From positions 1 through 64,000 of the forward strand of contig JAKLZA010000030.1 of the NCBI GenBank assembly GCA_030704615.1: a DNA stretch of 64,000 bases, in the 5' to 3' direction. The DNA is from Takakia lepidozioides (Eukaryota; Plantae; Bryophyta). Below, piece by piece: positions 3,402 through 64,000 of this stretch (positions within the stretch are counted from its first letter, which is position 1; the number at the start of each line of letters is the position of its first letter). The notes below the pieces were generated by a model. That model was given only the letters and a program-made list of their open reading frames with translations, did no database searches and had not been told where the DNA came from. A program made the position numbers and the translations under genes.

Positions 3402-3927
3402 TGTCGTGCGCATACGTATCGCTACACAACTACATCGCTGTCCAAACCACACCACACATATATGCACAATAAAGTAGTCTGCCACAATGATAAGAAAAGC
3501 TAAGAACACACTCTTAACACAAGAAACATGAAATCCATCTCATCATCACTCTTTCAGATAATAGTCGAGCCAGGGGCACCCCAAGCTATGGGGACTCCAC
3601 CCCACAACAACCTATCCTCCCATCATAAGTACACTCAGTTCTAAACGATGAAGGAGCTCGGTCGCGCAGGCTCAACTCGAGAGAGATGAGCTGCGCGATT
3701 GACGCTCTCGTGAAGATAAGACAGTTCAGTTGTCAAACTAAACTTGACACCTGATTAACACTTGACCTAAATCCAAGTGTTAAATACAAATAACTAGCTT
3801 TATTCTAGTTAGTTTCACACTGTGCTTATTTAACTTGACAGCTGTCGTGCGCATACGTATCGCTACACAACTACATCGCTGTCCAAACCACACCACACAT
3901 ATATGCACAATAAAGTAGTCTGCCACA
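3402..3927 (-). repeat. 3' LTR with A-B-A structure (85-bp identical direct repeats at 3402-3486 and 3843-3927)
   Basis: Exact duplication of TGTCGTGCGCATACG...GTCTGCCACA. PPT (minus strand CTAGGGGGGCG) lies next to 3927. GACAGCTGTC palindrome at the A/B junction. Confidence 0.85.
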
Positions 3928-4185
3928 ATCGCCCCCCTAGCTGGTGGATAGGTCCCTAAACTCCAGATAGCTACAAGATGTAATAGCCACAACCGTACTA
4001 AGTCCTCTATCACTGTCCCTATTGTACTCAAACTCTAAAGACCAAGAGGCCGGGTACAAGAGTAGCCCCATCGTTAGTCGCCGTCTTGCAATCTGTGAAC
4101 TTGAGCCAGGATCTCGTGTGTTCAAGGTCTCCTAGTAGCTTGGCCTTGCATTTCTTGTTAGCCTCCATAGTTGTATCCACTCCCA

Positions 4186-5577
4186 CTATCCAATGCATTG
4201 TGGACATAACCAATCCCCATCCGGAACCATCTCAAGAGGTGGAGTCAAGCATCCCATATGCCAACCTCTAGAGCATTGATCACACACCAGCATGGTGGCT
4301 GCCCCTTTAGCAGACCCACACAACATGCACCTCAAACTTGCAGATACCACTGCCAGGTTTGGGTCACATGGCGCACAATTACGCACATGGTCCTTCCAAG
4401 TTATGCCATCCCGACCCTCCAAGACCAAGACGCCTGAGGGCAAGACCTCTCGAACCCTCAAAATAACACGTCCTGCAGTCACATCCAAGGTCGTAGGAGC
4501 AGTCTGCTGCAGATAGACATAGTCACCAGGATTGAATCTCCGAACCCCAGGACGATAGCCCCCACCACGTATGGTAGCATACCTCAACGTATCACGGTGT
4601 TGTGCAATGGCAAGGTTCTCGAAAGCCATGGGCATGACTTTCTTGAATAACTCTGCACGCTGCTCACATGCACGTGCCCACATGTCCGGATCATCAAGGT
4701 TAAGAACTGTAGCAGCTTCCTGCGAATGGATGTAGGCAAATCCGGCTCTCGGCCAAAGAGAAGAAAGTATGGTGAGAAGGAGGCAAGTGATGCTTGCTTG
4801 CTGAACCTGTAGCCCATGGCTAACCAGGGTAACTGAAGGTCCCAATCTCCTAGGTGTCCCTTCTGCAAGCCATACTTGCGCAAACCCTCTTTACTGTCTG
4901 AACAACTCTCTCTGCCAAGCCATCGGCTCAGGATGATCCCGAGAAGTGGTGCGGTGGTCTATCAAGGCCTTGTCACACAAAGCCTGAAACTCCCCCAAGA
5001 ACTCTCTCCCTTGGTCCGTGAGTACCTCAGCTGGAACACCGAATCGGCTAAGCACACAATCCAAGAATGCATACGCAGCTCCCTCACTAGCCTTATCAGG
5101 CAATAAACCAACTCAATCCAATTGGAGAAGTGCTCCACCATCACCAACACGTACTTGTTGTGGCGCATGGTCAGTGGCAACGGCCCTGCGAAGTCAAGAC
5201 TCCACCTGTAGCCCAATCCCATGATCGGAAGAGGTGCAATTGTGGAGTAGGGGCGTTGAATGAAGCACGCACCCTGTCACACACCATGCACCTAGCCACA
5301 AATTGTTGCACCTCTGTGTGCATACCACGCCACCAATACTGCCCCTGCAGTAGACTATGAGTGCGTCGCACCCCAAAATGCCCAACTCCTCATGGGCATG
5401 CCGCACTAACCGTGCCCGCTGTGTTGGGTGAGGCACAATCCTCACTCGACCATCCTCCCACACTCGGAGCAGGTGTGTCCCCTCCCACTTGAACCTCTTG
5501 GCTCGTTGTAGGATCCGATCCCTCTCCTTGGCAGTCACAGTGGCTGCCGTGTCTCCAGTGCGAAGATAGTCCAACAC
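4186..5577 (-). CDS. Integrase (HHCC zinc finger + DDE core) with C-terminal PHD finger, frameshifted
   Basis: HAHEELGH...CMVC; WSLDFAGPLP; VLTDQGREF; C4HC3 CMLC..MLVCDQCSRGWHMGCLTPPL..VPDGDWLCPQC. Confidence 0.9.
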
Positions 5578-5779
5578 AGTGAATCCTCATGTATATCTTT
5601 GGCGCCACCTTGCTCATTGCTGGCCTCAGGGTCCTCAGACACTTGATCCACAGTCATCCCTGTTGCAGGTCCAACCTGGCCTTCCGCTGCCAAGATACAC
5701 AGAAATGCAGATGCATGCCATCCGGGCACCATCTCCTCGTCCGTCTCACCATGCCACCACCGAGCTCCAGTGTCATTGC

Positions 5780-7200
5780 TCGTGCATGGATTGTGACTCA
5801 ACCCATCTGCATTGCGATTGACAAACCCCGGTCGATGCACCACCTGAAAGTCATACTCTTGAAGGATGAGTGCCCACCGTGCAAGCTTCCCCGTAAGCTT
5901 GTCTGACTCCATCAACCACTTGAGTGGTTGGTGATCCGTGACAAGGGTGAAGAGATTGCCATATAGATAGCACCTGAAGTGTGCCACGGCCCACTGCAGC
6001 TAAGCATTCTCCCTCATATGAGCTATACTTAGACTCGCAGCATTGTTTGAGCGGCTAGCGTAAGCCACTACGAACTCTCTTCCTCATCATCCACCTGTGT
6101 GAGCACCGCTCCAAGCCCCAACATGCTCCAATCCGTATGCAGCTGAAAAGGCCCCCTGATAGGTCGTCTCAAGATGGGCGCCGAGGTCAACCTCGCCTTG
6201 AGCTCTTGAAAAGCTTGTTCTTGCTCATCTTCCCACTGCCACTCCTGGTCCACCTTGGTCAGCTTGGTTAGAGCCTTTGCAATGGCACTAAATCCCTTAA
6301 CAAACCGTCTATAATAGTTTGTTAACCCATGAAAGTTCGAACTCGGCTCACATCCGTGGGGTGGAACCTGTGCAATGGACTCTACCTTAGTCTGCTGTAC
6401 CCCAATCCTCCAGGATATATCATGTGACCCAATACTCAATCTGGTTGTGGAAAAACTTGCACTTTCCCGGAAACTTCAATCCGTGCGCCCTCAAGCGCTC
6501 AAATACCCCCTGAAGGTGTCTCTCATGCTCTTCCACCGCACTAAAGATGATGATGTCATCTATGTAGCACCGAGCAAACTCCACCCCTGCTAGAATCCTG
6601 TCCATGACTCTTTGAAACTCTGCGGAGCGTTCTTAAGCCCAAATGGTAAGAACCGCCACTGGTATAGGCAATCCTTCCCGTGCTCATTGATCCCCCAGAA
6701 TGCCGTCTTTTGCTTATCCGCCTCCTTGATCGGCAACTGGTGATATCCGGATCGTAAATCCAACGTGCTAAAGACCTTGGCATGCCAATGGCATCAAAGA
6801 TCTCCTCTGGTGTTGGCATGGCATACCTATCGGACTTGGTCTGACGATTTACAGGCCGGTAATCACCGCACATACGTCTCTCCGTCCAATTGCCAAAGAC
6901 ATCCTTCTTGGCTGGCATCACTGTGGCTGAAGCATACTCTCCCCCAGATAGCTCCACCAAACCAGCCTCCCAAAGGTCTTGAGTTCTCATCTGAATCAAG
7001 GACCTCTCCATGTCACTGTATCTATAGGGTCTCCGAAAATTGGCGTGTCAGTACCAATTCAATGCGAATCTCTGACCCTTCAGTGCTCCTAAGTCCTTCA
7101 AACTGAAGGCAAAGCAGTTCTGTAAGCCCTCAAAACCGCCGTATACGTCGTCTCTCTCCTCCGGTGACTATAGGTCCAACATCAGGCTCCCAGTTGTCCT
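5780..7200 (-). CDS. Reverse transcriptase and RNase H, frameshifted
   Basis: RRMCGDYRPVN, YAMPTPEEIF, ARCYIDDIIIF, LTNYYRRFVKGF, FQLHTDWSMLGLGAVL, TDHQPLKWL, LARWALILQEYDF. Confidence 0.93.
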
Positions 7201-7555
7201 CCGTGACTGCAACCTTGAGTCCAGCAGGCTTAGAGGTAGAAGACGCGTCCCGTGGTTGCTATGTTGCAACCTCTTGAGCAGTGACCACTGCCTCCTCTGT
7301 CAGTGACAATGTCTCATCCTGCCCCATCATCCCATCCTTGAGGACCTCCTCAATCCGAGAAAATCCCAAGCTGATCCATCACCCGCCGCCTTGGCTGCCA
7401 ACTCCTTCTGAACCTCAAGCACCTCCCACGTGTGCCATGGATGCGACCTGCACCTCGTGGTCCTCACCTGCTCGCCCCCACTCGCTGCCTGTACCGTCTC
7501 GGTAGGCAGGGAGACCATGAAGGGAAGTGTACTCCGTACTCTGCGCTGCTCAGCC

Positions 7556-8500
7556 ATAGCCAAGCTGATAATCCAGGTCAAGCAATTGAGATCCATTGCT
7601 TGCCCCAACACCTGACGATGTGATGCCTCAGAAAGAGATGGCACCCATGGTACCAGTGGTAAAACCCATTGCCCGCTCGTCGTCAGCATTGGGCTCCACT
7701 AATTGTTGCAACTGGCTATCCCACAGAGGCCAGGTCCACCATCCCGAAAAGCATGGGATCCTGGGAAGCTGAGCAGTGTAGGTAATGCTGCTCGTGGTTG
7801 ACCCACCTGTTGACCACTGCCACGGTCATCGTGTCTCACACGTTGAGACTGCCTCCTTGTGTCCAAATGCTATCCACTGTGAGGTGTGTTGGCCGCTGCA
7901 CCCCATCAAATGCACGCTTGAGCAGTGTGGGTGGCATCAGTTAGTCCACCATAACCGTGGACAATGAGCCCGTGATCCCACTGCAGCTGCATCCAGCAAC
8001 ACTGCTGACCCAAGCCACGACCGGACTTGATGCACACTGGCCATCACCCTAGCCCGAGAATCACCCATCAGTGGCACATTCTCCAAGATGTATGCTGGAG
8101 ATACAGCTTGATGAAGCTGCAAGTGGCGCAAAACCCGCACCATCTCCCAAAATAGACCCGTCCTCGAGTCTCGCAATCCATTGCCATGCCCGGCTGATGA
8201 ATGCCCTTGGCAGGGCCAACCTGCCACTACCAGATCAATGGAGCCAACCTGCTCCAAATCCTGCGCCCCCAGCAACGAAATGTCTGCTTACAAGGCTTGT
8301 GGTATCCACGAACTGCAGACACTGGCAACAAATCAGGGTACTGCTGTACCATCTGAGCAACATGGCGCAGTGAGACGTGTCGTGCAGTCTCATCCCTCTC
8401 CACATACAGGTAACGTCGAACTCGTACACCTGCCTGCAGTACTGCGGCCAATCCAGTGCTGATCCCGCCAACAAGTCCAGAAGGCATATGCCTTCATCCG
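7556..8500 (-). CDS. C5 cytosine DNA methyltransferase domain (DNMT3-like) inside pol
   Basis: Motif I LDL(F)GGI with a 1-nt slip, II YLYVERD, IV DLVVAGWPCQGHS, LFWEMVRVL, VI YILENV, VIII RAHCPRLWWTN, IX ERAMGF, X RQVLGQAMD. Confidence 0.9.
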
Positions 8501-8850
8501 GGCATGCCATACAAGAGGTGTGGTATCCAATGGCGACAACTGAGGTGGTCCTGGTGCAATCACCGCACTCTCCTCTTCTCCTGACGGTACGAAGGCCTCT
8601 ACCCAGGCTTGTTGCACCCCGTCCATCAGCAGCCTGCTGCAAATCCTTGCTCGTACCCCACAATGGAGTGTGAGCAACCATGGCAGGCAACTCCGCCGTA
8701 TCATGCATGTCATCCTGCTCTGCTGAAGGTGGCACATCCTCTGCATGGGCATTGCCTTCCAGCAACTCTCCAGGCCAACTAACTGCAGCTGTAAAGGCGG
8801 CTAGTGTTGGCATCCTGCCCCGCTGGGCAGCCGCAATACCTCCAATAATA

Positions 8851-9335
8851 TCACAGGGAGCTGTACACGACGACCCTCCCCTGACTGCCATCCAGGCCTA
8901 TAGAAGCTGACTCCTCCCAAAAATCCAGGGTGAAGCCCATGGGGTACAACACTGCCCCACCAACCAGGACATCGTACGAGACCGCGTCTGTCACAATGGC
9001 CTTGGCTCGCATCACTGAGCCATCTGTAGGGTGATCCGGCTGTAGTCCAATGGCCAACTCACCGTGTCATGCCCCGAGCCTGCTCTGATCCTCCCAAGAT
9101 GTCTGTATCTGGAAAGGAAAGGCTCCATATCCGCCTCCATGAGGCCCAAACGTGCAATAGCAGCTCTGCCCAACATCAGTGGCTGAGCTCCCGAGTCCAA
9201 CAAGACCCGCAGTGGCCGGTACTTCTTACCTGCCGGTCCACTCAAAATGAAAATGCCATCCTGGTTGTCTAACAAGACAACTCCAGGTGTCACCATGGCG
9301 CGCTCAAAGGCTGGCCTAGCTGGCAGCTCCGTCAA
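8851..9335 (-). CDS. Retroviral-type aspartic protease
   Basis: RVLLDSGAQPLMLG and YDVLVGGAVL. Confidence 0.85.
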
Positions 9336-9604
9336 CCTGACAGCTGCAGCTTGCCATGCGCAGCCGTGGCAATCTTGACCCTCAAATCCGAGGATCCCTC
9401 TGCCACTACACCTTCCTACTCCGCAGAAGATGAAGTGACCTCCCCACTCTCACAGAGTGTTGCTGCTAGTCTGAACACTGCAGCTGGTCTTATCCCCGGC
9501 GTCGCAATCATGGTTGCTGAGAACAGTGGGGCTTGACACAGAGGTGGCTGCCCCCAACAACACATCGGCTGCACTACCTTAGTAGCAAGTGTCAGTGATG
9601 CACG

Positions 9605-10441
9605 TGTAGGCATTTTTATGGTTCTGTGAGTCTGGGACTTAGACACTTCTATGGGTTCTGAGGGGTACCCTTAATTTTTTGAGATAGACCGTCAGCCATA
9701 CACAGCCCATCACAGTCAGTCACAAGCCCGACATAGTCATAGCCCGTCACAGCATACACAGCCAGTCACAGCCCAACACAACCCGATACAGCCGTCACAG
9801 TCTGACACAGTCGCACAGTCAGTCACAGCTGTCACAGTCATAGGGAAACGGTTATCATGACAGGGAACGACTGTGGGGAACAACATCTGCCGGGAACATG
9901 TAATTCACGGAGGACGGTTAGTGAAGGAAAACGGTTAGAACAGCGCGTAAGGAGATAAAGCGGGCAGCGGAGACGAGAGGGGGGACTTTTTTGGGACGGA
10001 GATCACTCTGGGGGAGGACTGAGATCGAAGGAAGGGAAGCTGGCGAGGAGGAGGAGATACTATAGGACAGAGTTAGTACGAGATGTAGGATTACTTAGAG
10101 GGATAGATTAGAGAAGTTAGGACATCAGCATGTATCCGATTATGATTAATCTGATTCTCATCCGATACAAACACCTTGTGTTGAGAGACTTGTGAAGCTG
10201 TGTATGAATGAAATCAGGGGGGCCCAAAGAAGCAATCTGACGCTTCAAAAGATACTTGGTCAGATAAACAGGGAATATAAACTGATAAGGAATGTAATTG
10301 GAAACCCAACAATGATTCACTAGCTGCAGGTCTGAATGATTGTTTCACGCGGGCTGAATGCTTAGAGATATCTCCAACTCTTCTATCTTGGAGTTTCCCC
10401 CTCGGATAGCGAAGGGATGGGTGAGTAAAAGCCGTGTGACA
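9605..10441 (+). repeat. 5' LTR containing a CACAGCC microrepeat array
   Basis: Ends GTAAAAGCCGTGTGACA. The 5' boundary is approximate. Confidence 0.85.
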
Positions 10442-10975
10442 TTTGGCGACCATACTGGGGAACTGAGTCATGAACAACCAGATGTGACAGGCATCTGGTG
10501 GGATCATGGTGGTTGGAGGATTAAAGAATTTGATGTGAATCAAATTCCCTGTGGAACGAAGGAAGAAAGATTGTCCAAACAATTCTTTCAAAGGTTCTTG
10601 GAATTGCCAGACGGTTGTAAAGAAAATATTCTTAAGCGAGTGCATGATGCTGATCCGGAATGGGGTCTGGAGAAAGGAGTGATAAAGATTTATCAGGTAG
10701 CCTGTAGAGGAAGAGCACGGTGGTTACCAACATTGGTTTATGTGATAGCCTTGCTATCTATTAAGCGGGTAGAGTTTGAAAGCTGGGAGGAAAGGAAAGT
10801 GAATGTTTACACTCATATGCATGAGGAGCTTGTATTGGTAAAGAATTGGATTCCAAAGGATATCTTGTGGATCAAACTTACACCAAGAACAGCTTTTCAG
10901 ACTTGTTTACCATATGGTTATAGAATTTTGGTTGTTGCCACACTAAAAGAAATGAAAGATATGGAACATGAGTGA
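10358..10975 (+). CDS. Extra ORF upstream of gag, function unknown, with an F-box-like motif
   Basis: Conserved with 39143-39775 with many third-position differences. Contains RFLELPDGCKENILKRV. Confidence 0.6.
   Translation: MLRDISNSSILEFPPRIAKGWVSKSRVTFGDHTGELSHEQPDVTGIWWDHGGWRIKEFDVNQIPCGTKEERLSKQFFQRFLELPDGCKENILKRVHDADPEWGLEKGVIKIYQVACRGRARWLPTLVYVIALLSIKRVEFESWEERKVNVYTHMHEELVLVKNWIPKDILWIKLTPRTAFQTCLPYGYRILVVATLKEMKDMEHE
10444..10461 (+). other. Primer binding site, probably tRNA-Arg
   Basis: TGGCGACCATACTGGGGA, 2 nt after the LTR end and identical at 39253-39270. Resembles the complement of the plant tRNA-Arg(UCG) 3' end. Confidence 0.7.
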
Positions 10976-11789
10976 TGAAAGAGAAGCTAGACTCCAAAGA
11001 TATTCAGCAAAAGAGAAAGTTATCTGAAAGCTCATTATCCATACCTGTGGGAGAGAGGAATAGACATTGGGGAATCATTTGGACCTCTCACACCATTGAG
11101 ATCAGGGAGTACATCACCTATACCAGAGGAGCTAGAGTTGGATACCACACCTTCTTTTTCTTTGCAAGAAAGATTAAGGGACTTGGCAGAGGAAGAAGAT
11201 CAACCACGAGGTGAAAGATCTGAGGGTACATCCCTGGATAAAAGATTTGGCAGAAATCTTTGATAAGAGTTGGCATGGAACACCAAGAGCAGGAACTCCA
11301 GTTTCGGGAGCAAAAGATGAGGATACAGAACCAGCGGAGAGTTCAAACTCTCCAACATTATTACAAAATAGTTACATGAGTGAAGAAGAAGAAAACCAAG
11401 GGCAGAACTTGGAAGATGAAAACAGGAAAAAGAAATTTGGAAGATGAGGAATATAAAGAAGTAGACCCAGCAGCTGAGGTTGAGGTTGAGACTACAACCA
11501 GGACATCCCAACCCGTTGGACCTGGATCAAGTGGAGCACTTGGATCACAGGCCAACGAAGTGTCGGCTCAGAGGGATCAGGCGAAAGACCTGGATCTGGC
11601 TCTGGGGGACAGGGAGTGTGGAAAGTAGTGCAACTGAGGCTGGGAATACTGTGAATATAGAAAGGCCAGGAGCAGGAAGGGCTCAGGGGCCAGTAATTGG
11701 TGGAAGAACCACCACAAATACTACAGGTCCACAGGGACCAGCATCAGCCAAAGGGCCAACAACTGTTAGGGGGCGGGTGTAGGGTTGCA

Positions 11790-14592
11790 GATGGCGTTAC
11801 AACCAATACGGGGCTAAACCACCTTTTCCAATATATTCAGGGAAAGGGGATCCTGATGTACACATTAGCCAATTTGAGCACATGTGTATAGTGAACAATG
11901 AGAATGGCAATGATGCCAAGATGAGACTGTTTCCGTGTTCACTTATAAAGAAAGCCAGTGAATGGTATGCAAGATTCCCTGATAATCATTTCCTAACCTG
12001 GAATGGCTTGAGTACAGCGTTCCGAAATAGGTTCAGGACCAGTAAAACTGAGGATGAAGTGTATGGGAGTTTACAACAGCTGAAGCAGAAGAAGCATGAA
12101 ACTGTTGAAGAGTATATGGAGAAAATGGAGTTGATGATGAAAAAGTTGGCTACTATACCAGCACCAGGATTGCAGAAGGCTTGGTTTGTGAATGGACTAA
12201 GGCCAGAGTTGCAAAAGAAAGTAGACATGTTACCCCACAATACAGTGGAGGAGGCATTTGAAACAGCAAACAGAATTGAGCAGTTGGGAATGCTCAAGAA
12301 GGAGAAAAGAGATGAAGAGGACTCTGAGGATGAGTCAGAAGAAGAAGAGGAGATGGAGCATAAAAAGAAGAGTAAAAAGAAGGAAAAGATGAAGAGGGAA
12401 AATTATGAGAAGAGATTAGAAGAAATCTTGAAAAAGTATGCCACAGAGGCTTGCAACACATTGGAGGAAGGGTGTTTGGTGTGCAAAATGCCAGAATGAA
12501 GGCCACACCACTACTGAATGCCACATGAAGGAGAAACATTGCACTATCTGTAAAATAGATAACCATTCTACTGAGAATTGTTACTACAACAGAAGAACAG
12601 CAGTAAGAGAGCCTAGGCAGGTAAGGGTGCATCAAGTGCAACCCCAGCCAAGAAGAAACAATGATCAAGACCACTATGGTAGGACAGGTGGTTATAACAA
12701 TGGCATGGAAAGGAGAGGTAATCCAAGAGGGAATTACCAGGGACATCCCAGGGGTGGCTATCAGGGTAATCCAAGAGGGAATTACCAGCCAGGGAATCAG
12801 GATTACAGAAATAATCCCAGAACAGACCAAGGGCGAGGACCCAATGGAGAAGAACTGTGTTACTATTGTAATCAGGCAGGACATCGTAAGGCGGCTTGTC
12901 CATTCTGGATCAGACACCAAAATGAGATGAGAGCTCCTGGGAATGAGGGGCCAGTGGCAGCCCACATGGTTAGGCCATGTATTGTACCGGAAGTGAGTAC
13001 AATGATAGTAACAAGAAGCAGAGCCAAATTAGTACCTCCAGTGAAAGATGAAGTTGTTGATAATGAAGATGGCAGTGATGTGCCTGAAGATGATGAGGCT
13101 TGGAGAGATGAGAAAGAACTGCACAAGGAAGTGGCGGATACCATACAGGAAATGCAGAAGAGTACTGATATTCCCATGGTAGACTCCTCAGACTCTGAAA
13201 GGAGAAGAAGAAGTCAGTGAGGAAGAAGGAAAGAGGGAAGCTGCAGAAGTGCAGGGTAAGGAAGGGACATTGGCTGAAGTGATATGCCAGTCCAAAGTGG
13301 AAATTACCATTGGACAGCTATTAGCTGTGGCACCTTATTGTAGACACAGGCTGTATCAAGCAATCAACAGGATTGCCCATTTGACAGAGAACATAGACCT
13401 GAACAGCAAGGTGACAAGTTATAATGTGAGGCCAGAAGGGCAAGAAACAGTCATGGATTTTGATGATTCTATGCCAGTTATCCAGTTGAGAATTGGAAGC
13501 ACAGAGCTGGCAGATGTACTGATAGATGGAGGCTCTGGTGTGAATATCATGACAGACCAATTGAGGCAGAAGCTAGGTCTAAACAACATGAAACCAGCCC
13601 CATTTACAGTAACCATGGCAGACCAAAGGAGTGTACAGCCATTGGGATTGATCAGAGGAGTTAAAATCCAGATTCAAGAGATGATCTTTAAGATCACAGT
13701 AACTGTGTTGAAGATGAATGAAGTCCTGGAAGCTTATTCCTTATTGTTGGGAAGACCATGGCTGAAACAGGCCAAGGTGTCTCATGATTGGAATTCACAG
13801 TTACTGACTGTGTAGGATGGGTTGAACAAGATACAAATCACCAATAAGAAATCTGAAAGACTATCTGCTACAAGAAGACCAAGAGGGGTCAGAGAGTATG
13901 ATTGGAAAGAAGGACTGGATGAGGAACAGGAAGTTACTTTGTTCGCTGCACACCCAGAGTGGGAACAGGTTGCAGAGATGCAATTAGAAGGCCTGAGTTG
14001 TTTAAAAAATATCTACTGTGGGTGCAGTGACAACAACCCCAATTGAGGAGGAAATAAATAGTTACCCACCACATTTTTATGAGGAAAGGGAAGGAGAGAT
14101 TGATATCCTAGAGGAACCAGCCACTGTAAGTCTACAGGATGAAATAGTAACTGGTTGGACAATCACAGCTGATGAGCAGGTGAGGGAAGTGAATGTGGGA
14201 ACTGAGAAGGAACCATCTAGAGCCAAAATTGAAGCAAAGAGTCTGTTCATTAAATACATAGATGTATTTGCTTGGAGCTATGAGGATCTGAAGGGGATAC
14301 CACCTGAGATCTGTCAACATAAGATTGAACTGGAACCAGGATCAATACCAGTTAAACAGGCGAGATACAGGATGAATCCCAACTATGCAGAGAAGGTTGG
14401 AGAAGAGATCAAAAAGTTGGCTGAAGCTAAATTTATATACCCGATAGAGTACACAACTTGGTTGTCACCCATTGTGATAGTCCCCAAGAAAAATGGCAAA
14501 CTAAGAGTTTGTGTGAACTACAAGAAGCTGAATGCTTGTACGAGGAAGGATCTTTTCCTCTACCATTCACAGAAGCAGTATTGGACACTGTG
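11790..14592 (+). CDS. gag (three CCHC knuckles)-protease-RT N-terminus, frameshifted
   Basis: CAKCQNEGHTTTEC, CTICKIDNHSTENC and CYYCNQAGHRKAAC. Protease at 13249-13815, RT from ~14200. Confidence 0.88.
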
Positions 14593-15479
14593 TGTCGCGC
14601 GGCTTTTACTCACCCATCCCTTCGCTATCCGAGGCGGAAAACTCCAAGATAGAAGAGTTGGAAATCTCTAAGTACTCAGCCCGCTCAGAACAATCAGTCA
14701 TGACCTACAGCTAGTGTATCATGGGGGTGTTTCCTATTTGTTTCCCTTTCCACATTCATGTTAGCTACCTTACCATTGATAATTAAGTATCAGTTTGCTT
14801 CATCAATCTATCGGATTCCTTCAACTCATCCATTCATTCCACAGCTTCACTCAGATCTCTCTACACAGTGTGATTGTATCGTATAAGTATCAGATTATGA
14901 TTTATCAGGTATCAGGCCGAAGCCATTGTGTCTCTAATCTCCTCTACAATATCACTACAGCTCTGCATATAACAAGCATCTACTAATCATCTCTCCTCCT
15001 TCTCCATGCTTGCTTCCGTTCTTCTCTCCACCCGATCCCCTCTCCTCCATGACCAAGAAGTCCTCCCCCTCGAGTGCTTCCAAGAATAATCATCATCCCC
15101 CCTTAGTCCTTGCCTCTCCCTTTATCTTCCTACCCGTGGCTCTAACCGTTTCCCTCACTAACCGTCGTCCGGGAACTATCATGTTCCATTTGCAGGTGTT
15201 GTTCCCCACAGTCGTTCCCTGTCCTGCTCTCTGTTCCTATGGTCGTGACAGCTGTGTCAAGATGTGACCGCGACTGTGACTGTGTTGTGTGGGCTGTGTC
15301 GGCTGTGACGACTGTGACAGGCTGTGTCGGACTGTGACGGGCTATGTTGGGCTGTGTAACCCCCATCTACAGTGCGCTGCTGTCACCCCTAAGGCTCTTG
15401 TTGATCTCAGTCTGTGCAAAAATTAAGGGTACTCCTCAGATCCCATAAAAATGTCTAAGTCCCTGGCAGTCCTCTAACA
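14593..15479 (-). repeat. 3' LTR of an antisense copy of the same Tat/Ogre-like family
   Basis: Minus strand reads TGTTAGAG...CGCGACA. PPT TTTTGAGAGGGGAAGGGG at 15483-15500. Confidence 0.9.
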
Positions 15480-15517
15480 TTACCCCTTCCCCTCTCAAAA
15501 AGCCGTGTCCTCACGGT

Positions 15518-18500
15518 TTACTGATTGCGATTAGCAAACCTTTGTGAGTGAGCACCTTTCTGACTTTGAGAGTTTCGTGGCGGACTGTGTGTACGAGCCC
15601 GAGGTCTGTCACTGGTTGACGGAGATGTTTGAACACTACCCGGATAAGTGAGGCCCTCTGGAGGCTGATATCGAGGTAACCTTTCAGGCATAGGAGACCC
15701 CCGTCGCTTCTTTTCTGCCATTTGAATTGCATAGTCTTCTCCCATGTCAAAAGAATCCGCCGTTTGTATCAGAATCCTCATCGCCTCTCAGGTGTTAATT
15801 GTCGAACTTTTTGTGGAATCCTCTGGGGCATACAATGTTGTCCTACCACGTCAGGAAGTTTATATTTTAAAACTTGATGTAAACGCTGAACGGCAAAATT
15901 GGTGAAGACACTGAGCTCCTTGTCTGTCCAGGTGAGTGGGGTACCAATGACTTGTGATTTGTTCAAGTATTTCCATGCCACATGTGCCTTATAGAAAATA
16001 TCATCAATGCCGAATTTCTGTGTTGACAAATTGTTCCAGGCCGACTGAAACCATAAACGAATTTGAGAATCCTTTTGCATCATGACTTTTGCCTCATATA
16101 GGTACATATGAGGTGGCACTGAAGGTAAGACCCAATGATCCCCACTGGAATAACTCAGAAAGCGCGATTGCATCTTTTGCTGCTCAATGTGATAACGTAC
16201 CAGAAAGCAAGCAGCGTAGTATAACCCACATCCCATGACAATACTCGCTACCTCTTTGGTCTTGGTATAAATGAATCCATGTACAACTTGGAAGGCAATT
16301 AATTCCCTCAACATTGTACCTGCCTCATGCCAGTATTGTGCAAAGTGATGATCTTCAATTGGTCGATTGTTCGGAAGAACGTTAGTCCTAGTTGCCACTG
16401 GCAGCCAAATGCGCATGATTTGGTAGTAATGTGCAAATGATTGCGGAGGACTAAATTCTTTCCAAGCCAAATCCAACATGATGGGAATTTGGTTGAAGGG
16501 CAGAATCATAGCCCTATTGTACTCCCTTGCAGCTGGAGTTTTAGGTGGGTTAAAAGCAGCATTGCCCCATACCTCAGACTGTGGTGGCTGTGGTGTAGTT
16601 GTAGTAACAACAGGGTCAGCTATTGGCACAGTGACTTGTTGTGTTGTTGGTGGCACTGGCTCTTGTACCATTGGCATCTCATGCACCTCCTGTGAAGAAG
16701 ACTGAAAAGCTAAAGTTCTCGCTTAAAGAAGCCATTAGCTGTTCATCAGGTACACAGACTCTCTTGTCGATATTTGAAGTGAGGTCCTCCACTTGAGTCT
16801 GCAGGCCGTCTATATCCTCCTGTAACTCCGCTATCCTACTATAGACATTGTCTATAGTAGTTGTGGCAATGTTCTGCACTTGCAGCCTGAGCTCATTCAT
16901 CTCGCTTTGGGTGAGCTTTCGTGGTGCTTTGCCTTCCACTGGCCCTTGTGCTAACCAGACCTGCATAAGGTGGTTATCCACCAAGTTGCTTGTGGTTCCT
17001 CTGAGAGTGTGCTCCTCTCTTTGTTTGTACACAACTAACTGCTGTTGTAAAGCCTCCATGCGCTTCGCATGAGGTTCAACCAAATTTGCATAGGCAGCAG
17101 GCAGATTATTGGCTTCCTTCCAAGCTTTGTTAGCCACAGAGAGTTCATTTCTATTGGCCATGATCGTTTGTTGCAACTCCAGGATGTGCCTCTCTTGGTC
17201 AGCTTCAACCTGCCTGTATTGCTTGAAAGTATCCTCATTGCGACAGATTGTATTCTTCATATCGACAATGAGTTTCATTTGCTCAACATTCTCTGCCTCT
17301 GCCTTCGTACATCTTTCCGCTTGACTGTTTATTTCTATTGTAGATTGGTCAAGCATAGTTGTGAGTGTAGCACATTGGATGGCCATTTTGTCATGCACTG
17401 TCTGCAACTCCGTATGTTGTGCATTTACTTGTTGCAACTTGCTTTCATGCTTCACCTGCATTTGGTATAGCTGTTGCTTATGTGCTTCGTGCAATTGGTC
17501 TTGTGCGAGGCCTGCCTCAATCAATTGTTCTTTGGCCAATTGCAAAGCGCCGCTTCCGTATTCTCCAAGTCTTGTTGCATCTTGATAGTGACCTCTTCAT
17601 CGACCTTGTTTGCACACTTAGTGGCTAGTCGAGCCTCAAACTCCTTCCTGAGTTCCCTCTCAAGGCTTGTCAATTGGGTAATTGGAACATGGGATTTGAC
17701 ATAAGTCCCCAACAAATTAAGTGTCATGCCTATGGAACTCATCAGCATTGCCTGTTGAGGGTCATCATTGTGAGGTTGCTGCTGTTCCTCCTGATCCTCA
17801 ACCGTGTGATGTCTCACGAACCACTCAGGCCATTGTCCCACCGGATTTTCTTCCTGAACCACTTCATCTATCACCGGTGCTGCAGTGTCATGACCTTCTA
17901 CCTGTGGTACCTCCGACACAGGTGTGTGTATTATATGCACCTCAGGATTTCCCTTGGGCAACTGTTGCACCTCTGGAATCTCTGTCTCCTTGACCAGACC
18001 AGAATATTCATAGAGAAGGTCCCCCTTCTCAATTTCTGCCACTATCTGTTCTGTAGTTGGAATATCTAACCTTTTTTTTCCAAATCAATTATTTTTGGTA
18101 GAGCTGCATGGACAACTTGTGACCTTGTGACAAGCCGATCAGCTGGCTGTGATGGTTGTGATACTGAAGTAACTTCCTCCTCTCTCTCTGAAGGTCCTGC
18201 TTCCAGTAATAGCAGTTCTGTGCTGCTGTGCCCCTTCCTGCACATGAGCTTGGGAAACATTATCATGCGGAATCCGTGAAGCCAGTGGATCCGCGACTAC
18301 AGTTTTCCCCGTCTCTGCCTCTTAGTCTCGGGTTGCCCTACTAGTCCACCCTCACTGTGTGAAGAGCCTTGCTCTTCCATTGCAGTGGTTTCTGGCTCAA
18401 ACACTCCCATCTCCTTTCTTTCTTGCGCATCAAGTATGCCAGAATCAAGAATTATTTGAGCAATGATTGGGCCAGACACTATGATAGGAGACTTTGCGGT

Positions 18501-19270
18501 AGTACCTTGTAATCTTTTCATCTCCTCTACCAGTGCGTTGTACATTATGTCCGCCCATTCTACCTCTTCTCCCTCAAGGCTTTGAGTATTTCCTCTGTGA
18601 AGGATCTGCTCAAATACTGTTGGTTTTGTTTCATGGCAAACAGAACGTTCAATACCTGGCCTACCTCCTTTAGCCCTGGGTACACGGCCTTGGTACAAGC
18701 GTAACCCTGAGTTTTAAAGAAACTCCCTTCTTGGAATAAGTCCTCTATTTGCAGTCTTGCCCTGTGCTCCTCCACATGCACTTGACCTGCTGGCAATTGA
18801 AACAATTGCTGTAGGTATAGGGGAGTAATTACTAATTCAACTCCCTTCACCGTTGTTGCTCATGTCCTTGGCTCAAAGTTCTGTAAGAATTGTAACATGT
18901 ACTGTCTATGGTGCAATGTCCAATCTTTGCTTTGCAATCCTTGCAATCTCAGTTCCTTCAGTATCTGTATCGCCTGTGGTGTAGCAATTGTTTGTTTCTG
19001 CAGAATTGTGGTGCTCTTCACCCTGATTTCCTCCATTCCTCTCACTCTCTTCATTCTAGACCCACAGAAATGTTTTGGCTGTAACAATTGAAGAATTGCC
19101 TGCAGTGCACAAAACATAAACGTATGGTTGCCACAAAAAGCTATGGGTAATTTCTTGTAAGCCTGTGGGGCTTGCAAGCATCGCTCAAGAGAAAAGATCC
19201 GCTCTGTTGTTTCGTCCCTATGCCACTGCGTAAGTAGTATTGCAAGCGTATAGTCTGTTAGTTCCTCCAT
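15518..19270 (-). CDS. Long 3' accessory ORF (frameshifted): Transposase_32/Athila-ORF2-like N-terminus, acidic linker, coiled coil, globular C-terminus
   Basis: A chain of same-strand ORFs. YMLQFLQNF..VKGVELVITPLYLQQLFQLP and VEWADIMYNAL..GPIIAQII. Heptad-rich region at 16700-17700. Lies directly upstream of the PPT and LTR. Confidence 0.65.
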
Positions 19271-19764
19271 AGCTTCAAAGCTATTGCATTGATTGTTTGT
19301 CCCTTCGCGACACCCGTTACTTAGAACGACGCCGACTCTTGCCCTAATTTCCCTCCATTTTCTTGATCATTTCTCTGGCTCTATTGGCTGTAACCAATGT
19401 GACTGGATTTTAGATTTAATTTTCTTTAGTGGACTTTCCCTGCTGGATTGTCCACTAGGACCCACATGTGACAAGAATTTCTTTTTTCTGTACTTGCCGT
19501 TTGTTCCGTTCCCTTTTTCCGTATTCATTAATGGGCCCGCCCTTCATCCGAAATGACGCGCTAAGTAGGTATTTTGACGGCCATTCTTGTCTTTTTTCTT
19601 GATGACACCTGTTCTTGCACTTCCTTCTCAGCTGTGTTCGCGCCTGACTTCCACGTGTCTATTTTTAAACTGGTTTCGGTCCTTTCTTCCGTCGGCCCTT
19701 TTCCTGAAGTTATTGTGCGTCCATCTGTCACTGTCACTGATTCTATGGATCGTGTAACCCTAGT

Positions 19765-19985
19765 AGGCTGTGTTGAGTTGTGACAGGCTGTGTCATACTG
19801 TGGTACATTGTGATAGGCTGTGATGCACTGTGGTAAGTTGTGATAGGCTGTGACACGCTGTGGTAGGCTGTGTTGTGCCGTGCTGGGCTGTGATAGACTG
19901 TGTTTCACGTCTGTGATGGGCTTGAGGGGCTGTGATAGACTGTGTCGTCGTGATGGGCTGTGATAGGCTGTGTCACGCTTGTTCT
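19765..19985 (-). repeat. CACAGCC(TAT) microrepeat array similar to the one in the LTRs
   Basis: Repeated TGTGATAGGCTG units on the plus strand. Confidence 0.8.
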
Positions 19986-23128: not shown

Positions 23129-24270
23129 TTGTGCTATAGAAGAAGCGGAGACCCTCCCTATGGAACCGTCCATTGCTACACTCGTGAACGCGAGGTGGTC
23201 AAGGAAGTACTCAAGGAGGTGAAGAAGGTGGTGAATTCCATCCAGGTGAAACCTAAGGCTAAGAAGCTTGGGACAAACCTAAGGCGAATCCTGGCGGAAA
23301 GTTGGGAAACGGCTGTTAGAGGGCTGTTTGGGACTTAGATAATTTTACGGGTTTCTGTGGGGTACCCTTAATTTTGCACAGACTGAGACCAACATGAGAT
23401 TTTAGGGGTGGCAGCGCAGGCTTTAAGGGGGTTAGACAGTCAGACACAGCTCGTCACAGCTTCACACAGCCCGACGCAGCTTTACACAGGCCAGTCACAG
23501 CTCAGCACAGCTTAACCAGTCTGTCACGTACATGGGAACAGTTATCATTGACAGGGAACGACTGTGTGGGAACGACATCTACAGAGGGAGCGTGTTACTT
23601 CAGGAGTGAACGATTAGTTAGTTAGGTGATTAGAAACAGCTTGCGGGTAGATTAGCAGGGCGGCAACAGAAGAGGATCATTACTTGGAGGGGAGCACTGC
23701 TGGAGAAGGGGGAGACGTAACGGAGAACAAAAGAGTGAAGAGGAGAATCAGGACTGGAGTGAGGCGGAATTCATGCAAGCTGTAGGATTATATAGAAGGG
23801 GTAGATTAGAGACACCATGACATAGGCATGATACATGATAAGTCTTAATCTGATACTTATTCGATACAATCATACGGGTAGAAAGACTTGAATGAGCTGT
23901 GGAATAAATGGATGATGAATGGAACCTGATAGATACTGAAGCAATCTGATGCTTCAGTCATACACGGTAAGGTAAATTGATAACATGAAGGCAAGAAGGA
24001 ATACAGATAGGAAGCACAACCATGATTCACTAGCTGTAGGTCATGACTGATTGTTCTGGAGCGGGCTGAGTGCTTAGAGATATCCAACTCTTCTATCTTA
24101 GAGCTTCCACCTCGGATAGCGAAGGGATGGGTGAGTAAAAGCCGCTCGACAACGGCAAGCAGCTACCTCTTTCAACAAGAGGGTCAGGCCCGAACCGCAC
24201 AACCGGTTATGATACGGGAGGCCGGAAACCTTCAGCGAGGTCAACGGCAAACAGCCACAACGGCCATGCA
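23129..24270 (+). mobile_element. Short Penelope-like fragment (ORF1/linker), interrupted by the solo LTR
   Basis: VLKEVKKVVNSIQVKPKA matches 31598-31927 on the minus strand. Bounded by CCTAAA-like repeats. Confidence 0.7.
23314..24151 (+). mobile_element. Solo LTR of the Tat/Ogre-like family
   Basis: TGTTAG...CGACA flanked by a perfect 5-bp TSD ACGGC (23309-23313 and 24152-24156). Confidence 0.95.
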
Positions 24271-24399: not shown

Positions 24400-26540
24400 T
24401 CATCTCAGTGAAATAGTTTCAATCACATATATTTGCCTTTTTGCATATATTTGCAGTTGCATCTTAGAACATCTCAACAAACACTTCTTTTTTAGCTTTA
24501 TGTCTCTCTGGATCAACGCTATTAGTTTTGATTCCCAGGATCTAGATATCTATTTTTTTTTGGTTCGGATTGTGTTCTTATTGCCCCGGTGCATTCGCGG
24601 TCCGCATCCTGTTGCACTGCTACATTTGTCTCCACTCTTTTATAGACCCTAAACCCTCAACCCTAAACTTTTTCGGAGCATAACCGGGCCCCCCTAAAAA
24701 CTTTTTAGTTTGCACTGTGCTATTATTGCACCCCGGTGCATTCGCGTTCCAATTTGTTGTACTGCTACATTTGTAGTTCCAATCTTTTGTAGGCCCAAAA
24801 TGCACAAACCTGTAGTGGTTGGGAGACCAATTTGTTCGTACAATGGGTACGTTTCTGAGCACGCATCCAAGTGGTTACATTACCATTTGTTTCCTATTTT
24901 ACTTCAGGAACGTAATCATTTGATAGATTCAATTTCTTTGTTGAGAGATCTGTCGAGTAGACAACTTCCTCGAGATGTGTTTCTATTCACCTTTGATGTG
25001 GAGTCATTGTACCCTAGCATTCCTACTGGGGACGGGCTTCGACGATTGAAGGACATGATTACCGACAAGCTCAAGTCACCCCGGTTTGAAGGACTCGACG
25101 TGAGTCTTTCTCCATGGTCTTGGAGAACAACTATCTTCAATTTGGCTCGAGCTATTGGCATCAGATCCGAGGCACTGCAATGGGTAGGCATTTTGCTGTT
25201 GTACGCTTGTCTCTTTCTTTGCAGCTTAGAAAGAGAGTTGGCTTGCGCAGCAAGAGGTATATGGCCTTTGTACTACAAGAGATACATCGATGACGGATTT
25301 TGGAATCTGGGAAGGATCTTGGGCAAGTTTGGAGACTTGGCTCGATCGATACAACTATCTCAGTCCCACAATTCGCATTCAAAGGGTGATCTCTGACTCT
25401 ACTGTTGACATTCTTGATATTCAATTCTTCAAGGGAGCTGATTTTGTCAATAGTGGGATTCTATCTTCGAGATGTCATCAGAAGGCACTCAACAGATATC
25501 GGTACTTGCCATGGACGTCCTGTCATCCGCGACACCAAAAACGACCATTCATCCTTGGTGAGCTACGCCGATACACTTTGAGAGAAAGCACATGTGCAGG
25601 TTTTTCAGAGATCAGACGACTATTCTATGAACGACTGCGTGCTCGAGGCTATCCAAAGTCTTTTATCTTAGAGTGTTTTAGACTATGTGACTATGCACAA
25701 CGTGCTACACTGTTAGCTTCAGAATCCACTCGTAAGTTGATGGGTAAGCGGACCCCCTTGGTTCTGAAACTTGAGCATTTTCGATATACTCAGCTCTAAA
25801 AACTTGGGGAGTCCTAAACCCTAAACTGCATGAGCATCTTCTGAAAGTTCCGCAGTTAGCATCTTTTGACAAACCTATGGTTTGTTGGAAAAAAACGAGG
25901 AATATTACGTTCCTATTTAGTTCGTGCTAAGTTACAATAGAGTCAATTATATTGAAGGATATATTCTTGGCTTACATGCATAAGTTGGAAAAAGTTTTTT
26001 TTTTTTTTTAGATAAAAGACCTTTTTCTTGGCTAAAGGAGATATTCTTGGCCTTACAGGCATAAGTTGGAAAAAAACTTTTTTTTTTTTAGATTTTTTTT
26101 TTTTTCTCGGCTAAAAAGATACTTTTTGTTGTCTTTTTATCTTATGCTCTTTTTTTAGACAACACTTATTCGACAGTATATAAGCTGGCGGTGAGGCTCA
26201 TTGTACTTCTTTCCATTTCTTTCTTCCCACTGAAGAGCTCAAATTTGAGCGAAACTAGTCTGGGGCTTATAAGATTTGCCAGTATCTCATATAAGTGTGT
26301 TTTGTCTCACTTTCTTTTCTCTTTGTGTTGTTGTACCTTACAGTTGCATTGTTTAGGACTGTCTATCTAGTCATGCCTTTGCTGCTAGGTTTTGTTCTCT
26401 AGTGCGTGTTTTTTCTTCCATAAGAGATAGGTTTTTGTTATCCTGTATTTACGGTGAAACAGTCTCAGTCATACACTTTAGTCATTTGCATGTCTTTGCA
26501 ATTGCACTTTAGAACATACAAATCTCTCATATCCTACCTA
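24400..26540 (+). mobile_element. Endonuclease-less Penelope-like element copy A, internally deleted. Its 3' repeat continues at 29931-30105.
   Basis: PKMHKP..GRPICS, FDVESLYPSI, YKRYIDDGF, LPWTSCHP, RLRARGYP. Ends LVRAKLQ* at 25940 with no GIY-YIG domain. Near-identical to 36090-37280. Confidence 0.88.
26226..26264 (+). ncRNA. Minimal type I hammerhead ribozyme
   Basis: CCCA-CTGAAGA-GCTCA(AATT)TGAGC-GAA-ACTAGT-C-TGGG. Intact core, stems I and II, palindromic stem III, GUC cleavage site. Confidence 0.9.
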
Positions 26541-29930: not shown

Positions 29931-30105
29931 TATGTCTTCATAATCATCTCTTTGAGTTTTTCTATAGACATCTTGAAGTTTTTTCCAGAGCATAACCCCC
30001 CCCCCCTAAAAACTTTTTAGTATGCACTGTGCTACTATTGCACCTGATGCATTCGCGGTTCAAATTTGTTGTACTGCTACATTTATAGTTCCAATCTTTT
30101 ATATA

Positions 30106-30153
30106 CCCTAAACCCTAAATTCTAAAACCCTTAAACCCTTAACCCTAAACCCT
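30106..30153 (+). repeat. Degenerate plant telomeric repeat (CCCTAAA)n at the junction of two PLEs
   Basis: CCCTAAACCCTAAATTCTAAAACCCTTAAACCCTTAACCCTAAACCCT. Confidence 0.8.
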
Positions 30154-36900: not shown

Positions 36901-37283
36901 AGAGAGATATGAACGACTGCGTGCTCGAGGCTATTCAAAGTCTTTTATCTTAGAGTGTTTTAGACTATGTGACTATGCACAACGTGCTACACTGTTAGCT
37001 TCAGAATCCACTCGTAAGTTGATGGGTACGCGGGCCCCCTTGGTTCTGAAACTTGAGCATTCTCGATATACTCAAGCTCTAAACCTTGGGGGAGTCCTAA
37101 ACCCTAAACTGCATGAGCATCTTCTGAAAGTTCCGCAGTTAGCATCTTTTGACAAACCTATGGTTTGTTGGAAAAAACGAGGAATATACGTTCCTATTTA
37201 GTTCGTGCTAAGTTACAATAGTCAATTATATTGAATGAGATATTCTTGGCTTACAAGCATAAATTGGAAAAAGAACTTTTTCT
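33985..37283 (+). mobile_element. Endonuclease-less Penelope-like element copy C, near full length
   Basis: The leader matches the 3' repeat of copy A. Coding region 34250-37221 contains LGLGLSFIP, IKPADKNLGLVIM and GIAMGSNFA. YIDD is mutated to YIDV. No endonuclease. Confidence 0.88.
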
Positions 37284-37284
37284 T

Positions 37285-59085: not shown

Positions 59086-59725
59086 TCAAGCTATTTCAGT
59101 GCCCTTAATGCTTGCCATACTCGAAGTTCTCAGCAAGCTTTCAGTATTCGAGGAGGTAGCAGCGACTGCAAAGCCCACACCGTGCCGCGAAGTAGTGCCA
59201 AAAGCGCAGATCACAGACACTACCAAACCCACCAGCAATGGAACGGTTTCACAACCGAGCTAGGAAGCTGAGGATAGTAGCAGGTTGTAACTGGCGTGGT
59301 TAAAAGTGTGAGGGTTGCTAAGGCAACAACAGACAGAGTCGCGTTGATGAAGTCATCCCTATGAAGCAGGTATCTTTTTCCACCTCCTGTGTATGTCGAT
59401 TTAGTACAGCCCGTCAGACCTGACAGCTTGAAGTGGGGATTCCATAGACCCTTTCTCGTCACAAGGCCATAGTAGACAGTGCCGTTCTCTCCCTTGTAAC
59501 TGTCGGTAAAGGAAGAAAATGCACATAGGATGCCTAGTAGTGTCAGGGTGACGGCCGTTACGATCTTCTCTGTGGTTCCGCACGCGCCATTGTTTGTGGC
59601 CAACGGAGCCAGAACCTGGAACACAAGGAACGTCCCTGTGGTAGAATATTGGAGAGCTGCGTGAGGAGATCCGTCGATATTTTCGATAAGCTGGAGCTCG
59701 ATGTTGACGAGCTGGCTGTCGCCAT
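59086..59725 (-). CDS. DMP: DUF679 / DMP membrane protein, intronless
   Basis: LSNIL.TGTFLVFQVLAP..TNNG.C, FSSFTDSY, VYYGLVT.KGLW, DFINA.LS, CYYP, SRHGVGF. Confidence 0.9.
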
Positions 59726-62872: not shown

Positions 62873-64000
62873 TGTCGTACGCATACATATCGCTACACAA
62901 CTACATCGTTGTCCAAAACCACACAACACATGTGCACACCACACACTAGTATACCACTAGTCCAACCACTAGGCTACAACTAGTCAGTCACTAGGCTGCC
63001 ACTATGCTGCCCACTATGGCAGTCACTAGTCCACACAATGATGAAAGAATACAAGCACAAGCTCATGCGAGCTCACAAAGCTGAAGCATAAACTCATGCA
63101 TACATAACCTCATCACTCAAATACAAGTCAAGCCAAGTGTACCCCACGCCATGGGGAATCCACACTACGGCGCCATAGCTAGGCGCGGTGAGGCTCAACT
63201 CGAGAAAGATGAGCCTCATGCGCTTGCCGTGAAGATAACCACTCCAGGGCCTAAATCTGCCTTGACCCCTGGATTGACACTTGGGCCAATCCCAAATGTC
63301 AATATGTAAAACTAGCTATTTCCTAGCTAGTTTCACACTAGTAAAATAACTTGACAGCTGTCGTGCGCATACATATCGCTACACAACTACATCGCTGTCC
63401 AAAACCACACACACATGTGCACACCACACACTAGTACCACTAGTCCACCACTAGTCCAGCCACTAGTCCAACCACTAGGCTACAACTAGTCAGTCACTAG
63501 GCTGCCACTATGCTGCCCACTATGGCAGTCACTAGTCCACACAATCGCCCCCCTAGCTGTGCTTAGGTCCCTCTAAGTCCAGGTAGCCACAAGATGTGAT
63601 AGTGACCATAGCCTCACTAAGTCCTCCACCACTATCCCTACTACACTCAAACTCGATAGATCAAGAGGCCGGGTGCAAGAGTTGCCCCATCGTTAGTCGC
63701 CGTCTTGCAACCTGTGAACTTGAGCTTGGGATCTCATGTATTGACTCCCTATGAGCTTGGCCTCCCATGTCTTGTTAGCTGCCTCAAGTCATGTCCACTG
63801 CCACTATCCCAAGCAGTGTGGACACAACCAATCTCCGTCAGGAACCTTCTCAAGAGGTGGTGTCAAGCATCCCATATGCCAACCCCTTGAGCATCGATCA
63901 CACACCAGCATGGTGGCTGCCCCTTTGGCAGACCCACAGAGCATGCACACCTCAAACCTGCAGGTACCACTGCCAAGTTTGGGTCAACTCTGCCATCGAC
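62873..64000 (-). mobile_element. Second copy of the PHD-integrase gypsy family: 3' A-B-A LTR (62873-63543), PPT, 3'UTR, PHD
   Basis: Homologous to 3402-4360. PHD ..CGSAKGAATMLVCDRCSRGWHMGCLTPPLEKVPDGDWLCPHC. Direct repeats at 62873-63037 and 63359-63543. Confidence 0.9.

Follow-up and report, generated by a model that had tools for sequence, protein, structure and literature searches.

The 64-kb stretch of DNA analysed here (the window) contains a Ty3/Gypsy retrotransposon copy that is truncated at its 5' end and belongs to a family carrying a DNMT3-like C5-cytosine methyltransferase domain, and comparison with its relatives supports the presence of a family-wide, selected domain of this type in a land-plant Gypsy lineage. 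The explanation that we consider likely as a whole is that Gag, protease and methyltransferase precede a readthrough stop, that reverse transcriptase (RT), RNase H, integrase and a PHD finger follow it, and that the enzyme is packaged and is predicted to methylate the cDNA. What purpose transposon-borne cytosine methyltransferases serve has been an unanswered question since 2018, and the hosts known so far are difficult to handle experimentally. Marchantia polymorpha is a genetic model and has numerous copies of the present family, which makes the question of function testable.

The element and its methyltransferase domain

Six-frame translation and Pfam searches place the protease upstream of the methyltransferase, and RT, RNase H, integrase and the PHD finger downstream of it, all on the minus strand (Table 1). 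The order protease-RT-RNase H-integrase, the DDE integrase, the polypurine tract (PPT) and a short target duplication are those of Ty3/Gypsy elements, but instead of two identical complete terminal LTRs the family has an A-internal-B-A-B or A-internal-B layout. The 3' end of the element is at 3402; at 3401 depth goes up and other contigs diverge from the stretch. Its 5' end is cut off at about 9634, where an unrelated Gypsy LTR starts, and the predicted primer-site sequence has no further occurrence in the 64-kb window, which indicates that the 5' part of the element is absent.

Table 1. Features of the methyltransferase-bearing element and of a second copy in the window
Feature	Position	Strand	Evidence and remarks
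Gag C-terminal remnant	9419..9580	-	tblastn and translation; rest of gag and 5' repeat absent
Aspartic protease	8938..9245	-	DSG 9186-9197; Pfam weak, under cut-off; tblastn
DNMT3-like C5-cytosine methyltransferase domain	about 7552..8505	-	PF00145, alignment, identity to P0001, P0001 model
Conserved in-frame stop TAG-CAA-CCA, predicted readthrough site	7253..7261	-	between methyltransferase and RT
Reverse transcriptase	6432..7167	-	YIDD 6555-6566
RNase H	5720..6169	-	Pfam PF17917/PF17919
Integrase, H2C2 zinc finger and DDE core	4713..5383	-	Pfam and tblastn
PHD finger at integrase end	4195..4329	-	Pfam PF00628, E=2e-11
Polypurine tract immediately ahead of repeat B1	3930..3939	-	
Repeat B1	3843..3927	-	85 nt, TG...CA, end CACGACA
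Palindromic B-A joint GACA-GC-TGTC	3836..3847	.	predicted integrase cut site
Repeat A	3488..3840	-	353 nt, TG...CA
Repeat B2, 3' end of element	3402..3486	-	0 differences from B1 over 85 nt
Second subfamily copy, 3' end	62874..64000	-	PHD, PPT, B-A-B, longer B

Translation and alignment show motifs I, II, IV, VI, VIII, IX and X in canonical, unpermuted order on the minus strand (PC of motif IV at about 8210-8215, ENV of motif VI at 8075-8083, motif VIII at 7955-7966 and motif X at 7591-7605). The largest open piece, 7937-8287, matches PF00145 with E=2e-13 and a score of 50.7 bits, where 22 is the cut-off, and a frameshift-aware alignment gives 223 of 310 residues identical to the relative P0001. 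These are the features of a C5-cytosine methyltransferase, with one motif VIII arginine changed and the frame broken in the window copy. Among the related loci that cover the respective positions, the catalytic cysteine is present in 71 of 71 and the ENV asparagine in 75 of 75. When compared by sequence to solved structures, P0001 matches DNMT3A (E=6e-12), DRM (1e-8) and HaeIII (4e-4). A first P0001 model, built from 15 sequences, was dropped (pLDDT 52), while the model from 54 sequences reached a pLDDT of 92; in Foldseek it best matches DNMT3A/B (E about 1e-18, TM 0.79-0.85 by target), with DNMT3 throughout the top ranks. An identity as DNMT2 was set aside on the same fold and sequence comparison. 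Judged by predicted fold and sequence, the family domain is DNMT3-like and closer to DNMT3A/B than to DRM, DNMT1, DNMT2 or bacterial enzymes. The alignment and the fold thus bear out the original prediction of a DNMT3-like enzyme with motifs in canonical order, encoded on the same strand as protease and RT, and the PF00145 search it called for gave a match above the cut-off. Plant host DNMT3 genes have introns and a C-terminal DUF3444 (PMC6453930); the window domain is instead colinear with intronless relatives, and DUF3444 had no match in the window pieces or in the 23 relatives scanned.

As assembled, the frame of the domain is broken at about seven places and interrupted once by a stop. Every one of these breaks is a loss of bases, as are all but one in the RT-RNase H region, where the exception sits at a place at which the reference lacks a segment, and most of the 13 listed break places that were checked lie within runs of 2-4 like bases. 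B1 and B2 are identical in the window copy while its coding part is broken; the copy may be young, with part of its damage being assembly error. The second of two subtilase (SBT2-like) genes in the window (41848-44115 and 52107-56972) also changes frame several times inside exons; these changes and the one-directional loss of bases from the element suggest an error-rich assembly. A subtilase exon shares 69-70% identity with Sphagnum proteins and 61-66% with those of other land plants, and the gene tree, which has no hornwort, lycophyte, fern or algal rows, places the gene beside Sphagnum and other mosses (100/99) on a long branch. This one long-branched, frame-broken gene points to a seed-free land plant, likely related to mosses, as the host.

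Several further elements lie in the window. A methyltransferase-free Gypsy family with CACAG-rich LTRs occupies 9634-14590, 14593-15479, 23314-24151 and 38301-41250, and one of its copies truncates the methyltransferase element. Long minus-strand ORFs between CACAG-type repeats (15500-19900; two scanned, no Pfam match) are perhaps extra ORFs of this neighbouring LTR family. Telomere-like CCCTAAA runs accompany three RT-like elements that are related to each other (24600-26100, 30000-32600 and 34100-37300; no Pfam match for the two ORFs scanned) and presumably Penelope-like, judged by their motifs. Another Gypsy gag-protease remnant (592-1792), a Tc5/pogo-type transposase remnant (27252-28953; PF03221) and a DUF679 gene (59220-59846) were also identified.

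Between the window copy and the related loci, median dN/dS is 0.10 for the methyltransferase (54 of 79 pairs unsaturated), 0.06 for RNase H (22 of 41) and 0.16 for the protease (6 of 50), with synonymous sites near saturation and the pairs not independent. For the methyltransferase, distant pairs of loci give 0.17 and close pairs 0.62, the latter as dead copies would. The comparison among copies, proposed earlier as a check, therefore yields values of about 0.1-0.2, far below 1, and these sequence data indicate that the methyltransferase domain is under purifying selection.

The changed motif VIII arginine had been attributed to deamination of 5mC. Its codon is TGT in the window, and the 79 related loci have CGT (52), CAT (18), TGT (7), CGG (1) or no letter (1). 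The change does fit 5mC deamination, but it has no bearing on self-methylation and was rejected as evidence for it: the opposite-strand product CAT is commoner than TGT among dead relatives, so the arginine-to-cysteine change reflects genomic methylation of dead copies and is ordinary CpG decay, one of two decay products. Likewise, no CpG depletion beyond that of the neighbours was seen as a mark of self-methylation, since the observed/expected CpG ratio of the element is 0.53, against 0.16 for the coding part of the adjacent methyltransferase-free Gypsy and 0.76 and 0.69 for two other elements.

Spread of the family and the conserved stop

A search with the open methyltransferase piece returned 55 relatives at E<=0.001, the closest being 68-78% identical, with named relatives in Marchantia polymorpha, Calypogeia fissa and Sphagnum troendelagicum, and a profile search added 79 metagenome loci with a related methyltransferase. 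Metagenome loci of sufficient length have the order Gag-protease-methyltransferase-RT-RNase H-integrase-PHD, except for L077 (1068-5644), which has the sister architecture RT-RNase H-methyltransferase-integrase-PHD also found in P0052, P0179 and P0312. The methyltransferase lies between protease and RT in what we call type P, and between RNase H and integrase in type I; the integrase has a PHD finger in both. Among representatives, 343 clusters reached E<=1e-30, and the best 150 of these comprised 18 of type P, 76 of type I and 56 that were untypable. Thirty proteins were looked up: those of type P with a named source came from Klebsormidium nitens (one) and Closterium (four), the named one of type I from Scenedesmus, and one untyped protein from Marchantia; Haematococcus has the type I architecture too. 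K. nitens GAQ93235 and the Closterium proteins show the same protease-methyltransferase order as the window.

The unrooted FastTree of 145 element-protein methyltransferase rows, which has no outgroup, splits type P from type I at 99, places the window within a bryophyte group at 99, and unites the K. nitens and Closterium proteins with the window on one branch, again at 99. Type P is also joined at 99 in the RT-RNase H tree, which includes 47 of 95 rows (48 type-I rows were left out and the partial K. nitens protein is absent) and has no true outgroup; the window's neighbouring RT row in this tree is short and long-branched. In L017 (1-2034), another element belonging to this RT clade lies directly upstream, with a shorter RNase H-integrase spacing and its 5' part cut off; it was a candidate outgroup but grouped within the clade and was set aside. 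That the domain stands ahead of RT in one architecture and behind it in the other suggests that the lineage dates back as far as green plants themselves.

Contigs from four runs of the window's organism cover the methyltransferase as they cover RT and integrase, at a depth that is no measure of copy number, and in a second organism one 5,009-nt contig spans 3923-8800. Among viral contigs, 25 pattern matches included no relative of the element. An assembly as error-rich as this one appears to be, with frame breaks that are all base losses, would suit an assembly chimera or a one-off capture of a host gene; the same architecture nevertheless recurs in 79 loci, in named genomes and in an independent contig, which leaves that reading with almost no weight. 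The domain is thus no peculiarity of a single copy, having relatives in named bryophytes and algae as well as in the metagenome loci.

The original prediction placed the enzyme inside pol and expected it to be in frame with its neighbours. It shares the frame of the protease in 37 of 51 loci and that of RT in 38 of 50, the window included, so the frame relation holds; the placement within pol is qualified by a conserved stop, found at 7259-7261 in the window in the context TAG-CAA-CCA, that separates the domain from RT. A stop at the matching place is present in L033, L074 and L075, a single-position stop is found in 33 of the 38 loci with matching methyltransferase and RT frames, and in the DNA alignment 57 of 58 loci have a stop codon at this position (38 TAG and 19 TAA), followed by CAA-CY in nearly all 57; the loci in these stop and frame counts include duplicates of one insertion and are not independent. 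L033 has one frame from Gag through integrase, broken by the conserved stop and one other stop. The protease is in frame with Gag in 31 of 44 loci, and no conserved stop lies between the two. Many named relatives terminate about 85-90 residues past motif X, and the Marchantia and Calypogeia proteins end at the conserved stop position, while three type-P proteins (P0112, P0254 and P0326) have no stop at the site.

UAG-CAR-YYA is a readthrough motif of plant viruses (PMC2194720, PMC4132726), and the full TAG-CAR-YYA is present in the window, L033, L074 and L075. Sphagnum-type loci have it in 0 of 58 cases and carry TAR-CAA-CCC instead, in which the sixth base differs; there an ATG comes next after the stop, so that re-initiation or splicing is possible. 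From this arrangement we infer a first frame of Gag-protease-methyltransferase, with RT-RNase H-integrase-PHD made by readthrough. A stop after the methyltransferase makes it likely that the enzyme is produced at Gag levels and not at those of Pol only, and would imply an unusually high enzyme dose per particle. As the first step of the mechanism that we propose, the enzyme would be about as frequent as Gag while RT and integrase would depend on readthrough, which the sequences make probable.

The predicted substrate of the enzyme is the DNA copy that the element newly makes of itself; methylation of cDNA was proposed for DNMT-bearing elements by de Mendoza et al. 2018 (PMC5890265). Since a Gag-level dose exceeds the catalytic need for one 9-kb cDNA, the domain might instead be retained as a structural component of the particle that binds DNA, RNA or SAM, or might methylate element RNA; the missing CpG depletion would agree with this, as would the lack of methylation by the K. 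nitens enzyme when tried in yeast, an outcome that its authors call inconclusive (PMC5890265). We regard a structural or RNA-directed role as rather unlikely, given that all catalytic motifs are conserved over bryophyte and algal copies, that the fold is that of DNMT3 and not DNMT2, and that the Dnmt3 domains of SymbioDIRS methylate CG de novo in yeast (PMC5890265). The enzyme could also act after integration or in trans on chromatin, through self-limiting silencing or PHD-linked marking of insertion sites. The high dose with a possible release from Gag, the PHD finger on the integrase of both architectures and the host-beneficial brake raised by de Mendoza 2018 (PMC5890265) speak for such an activity, but by established retroelement biology the Gag-protease fusion would put the enzyme in the particle, and chromatin as the main target has only a small chance of being correct. 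Methylation of the cDNA is the reading that we carry forward.

Permuted repeats and the predicted replication route

Both window copies have a PPT-B-A-B 3' end, and B-A-B is also found at the 3' end of L014 and L064. Complete relatives are either A-internal-B-A-B (L056, L038) or A-internal-B, and 11 loci have B alone at the 3' end. All of the 23 5' ends, 19 of them distinct, begin with A and none has B in front, so that the mirror form A-B-A-internal-B occurs in 0 of 19. The 4-bp target duplication is exact in seven of the eight loci with both ends and has one mismatch in the eighth. Terminal repeats of the type I locus L077 were not found within its contig. One insertion exists in two forms, A-internal-B (L025) and with B-A-B (L063/L064), which differ by about 9% in the element and by about 1% in the farther 3' flank; this points to later deletion or assembly collapse that reshapes the ends, and the A-internal-B form can arise later by deletion.

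Three subfamilies have a B of 85, 112 or about 187 nt, and B1 and B2 track each other. The second window copy, with B repeats of about 187 and 166 nt, has the same palindromic B-A joint, and the end of B is conserved (CACGACA/TACGACA). Within the family this joint reads GACA-GC-TGTC or GACA-AT-TGTC. The A-B2 joint is variable; most copies have a tidy 1-2 nt spacer, while L048 retains bases from the primer site and L038 bases from the PPT side, as would be expected of an end-joining scar. In four old loci, the identity of B1 and B2 is 91-94% within copies and 87-94% between copies, ranges that overlap.

A tRNA-type TGG follows A in 0 of 20 copies. The bases after the 5' A instead pair inside A, about 30 nt past a TATA-like box, and in the best copies this pairing is as long as 21 nt. 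The strongest pairing lies at one common site in 12 of 20 copies and is clearly above all 50 shuffles in 4 of 20 only. Within repeat A of L056 (1679-2017), a further occurrence of the primer-site sequence lies immediately ahead of its complement and forms a small hairpin with it near the predicted transcript start. The positions of the PPT and the primer site define B+A as the reverse-transcribed repeat; nevertheless, integration appears to use the start of A and the end of B. The permuted repeats would thus imply an integration route unlike that of standard LTR elements.

The second step of the mechanism, which we also hold to be likely, would be self-primed reverse transcription that, together with the PPT ahead of B, yields a linear BA-internal-BA DNA. 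Thirdly, and with a similarly good chance of being right, the ends of this DNA would be joined and the integrase would open the internal palindrome GACA-NN-TGTC to give A-internal-B-A-B; a cut after each CA would leave processed ends. Random cutting of a two-LTR circle should also yield A-B-A-internal-B, and the absence of this form counts against a simple circle model. The same absence, and the tidy spacer at most A-B2 joints, would be expected if the A-B-A-B layout were copied directly from RNA without end-joining, as proposed for split-repeat DIRS-type elements. This route is conceivable but unlikely: the PPT before B1 and the primer site after A1 mark B+A as the reverse-transcribed unit, primer-site or PPT-side bases are left at two of the joints, and B1 and B2 co-vary in the three subfamilies.

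Following the end-joining route, the fourth step would consist of the enzyme setting 5mC, probably at CpG, on the cDNA so that a new copy is pre-marked, with the PHD finger reading histone H3 at the target; this step draws on analogy and is about as likely as not. A bolder version combines Gag-level loading of a DNMT3-type enzyme in a green-plant-wide Gypsy lineage with an end-joined circle that is opened at the palindrome, where strand-specific methylation of the conserved CpG next to it (CACGACA) would tell the integrase which of the two identical sites to use, with the result that the replication-competent A-internal-B-A-B is the only form produced. We consider it very unlikely.

Comparison with known systems

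The comparisons that follow draw on parts of the cited sources. Foamy virus integrase cleaves two-LTR circle junctions, cutting a palindrome after CA on both strands with 2-nt 5' overhangs, which is the geometry of GACA-NN-TGTC; there the palindrome is an end-to-end joint and belongs to a side route, whereas here it lies inside the repeat and on what seems to be the normal route (PMC1180852).

Self-primed Gypsy elements of the Tf1/Sushi/Tcn1 group likewise have a primer site complementary to their own 5' repeat; Tcn1 is present in mosses, and in Tj1 the Pol region is preceded by an in-frame stop (PMC6317226, PMC4600332). Unlike the window family, these elements have a chromodomain in place of the PHD finger and ordinary twin LTRs, and, compared by features, their stop follows Gag while that of the window family follows Gag-protease-methyltransferase. 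LTR-FINDER was used in PMC6317226; owing to the permuted repeats, tools that require twin LTRs would miss the present family. Gypsy-7a_cRei and other PHD-bearing elements of Chlamydomonas, where REM1 also carries a PHD, share a PHD finger in the Gypsy polyprotein with the window element, but a methyltransferase is not among the domains listed for Gypsy-7a_cRei in the cited part of PMC9940879.

SymbioDIRS-Dnmt3 of Symbiodinium resembles the window element in having a DNMT3 domain in a retroelement polyprotein and split repeats (PMC5890265), but it has a tyrosine recombinase, lacks a DDE integrase and represents an unrelated capture. Membership of the window element in DIRS, Ngaro or PAT was rejected, as it has a DDE integrase and its family 4-bp duplications, in contrast to a tyrosine recombinase without target duplication.

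The closest counterpart is KnitGypsy-Dnmt3 of K. nitens, which has Gypsy domains, DIRS-like repeats and Ka/Ks < 0.2 (PMC5890265). Both have an intronless, unrearranged DNMT3-type domain in a Gypsy polyprotein, placed ahead of an in-frame stop in the present family; both have the A-coding-B-A-B layout, complete in L056 and L038 and without its 5' end in the window; and both are under purifying selection, with Ka/Ks here at 0.10 and 0.17, near saturation. The partial K. nitens protein, with the order Gag knuckle-protease-methyltransferase, lies on the window's branch in the unrooted FastTree. In contrast to KnitGypsy-Dnmt3, the window element has a land plant as its host. The account of KnitGypsy-Dnmt3, in the passages of PMC5890265 cited here, names no PHD finger, pre-RT stop, self-priming or route to the repeat layout, and treats the capture as a K. 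nitens lineage event; the present relatives span bryophytes, Closterium and, with type I, the chlorophytes Scenedesmus and Haematococcus. In the literature searched beyond PMC5890265, with subscription papers outside its scope, no land-plant member, no permuted LTRs in Gypsy and no naming of the family in bryophytes were found, nor were a chlorophyte architecture, PHD finger, stop or repeat mechanism for this kind of element. PMC12344493 and bioRxiv 10.64898/2026.05.21.726589 use the wording 'streptophytes' in the parts cited, and their supplementary trees, like that of PMC5890265, may hold bryophyte sequences. The window element belongs with KnitGypsy-Dnmt3, and this kind of retrotransposon is thereby extended to land plants.
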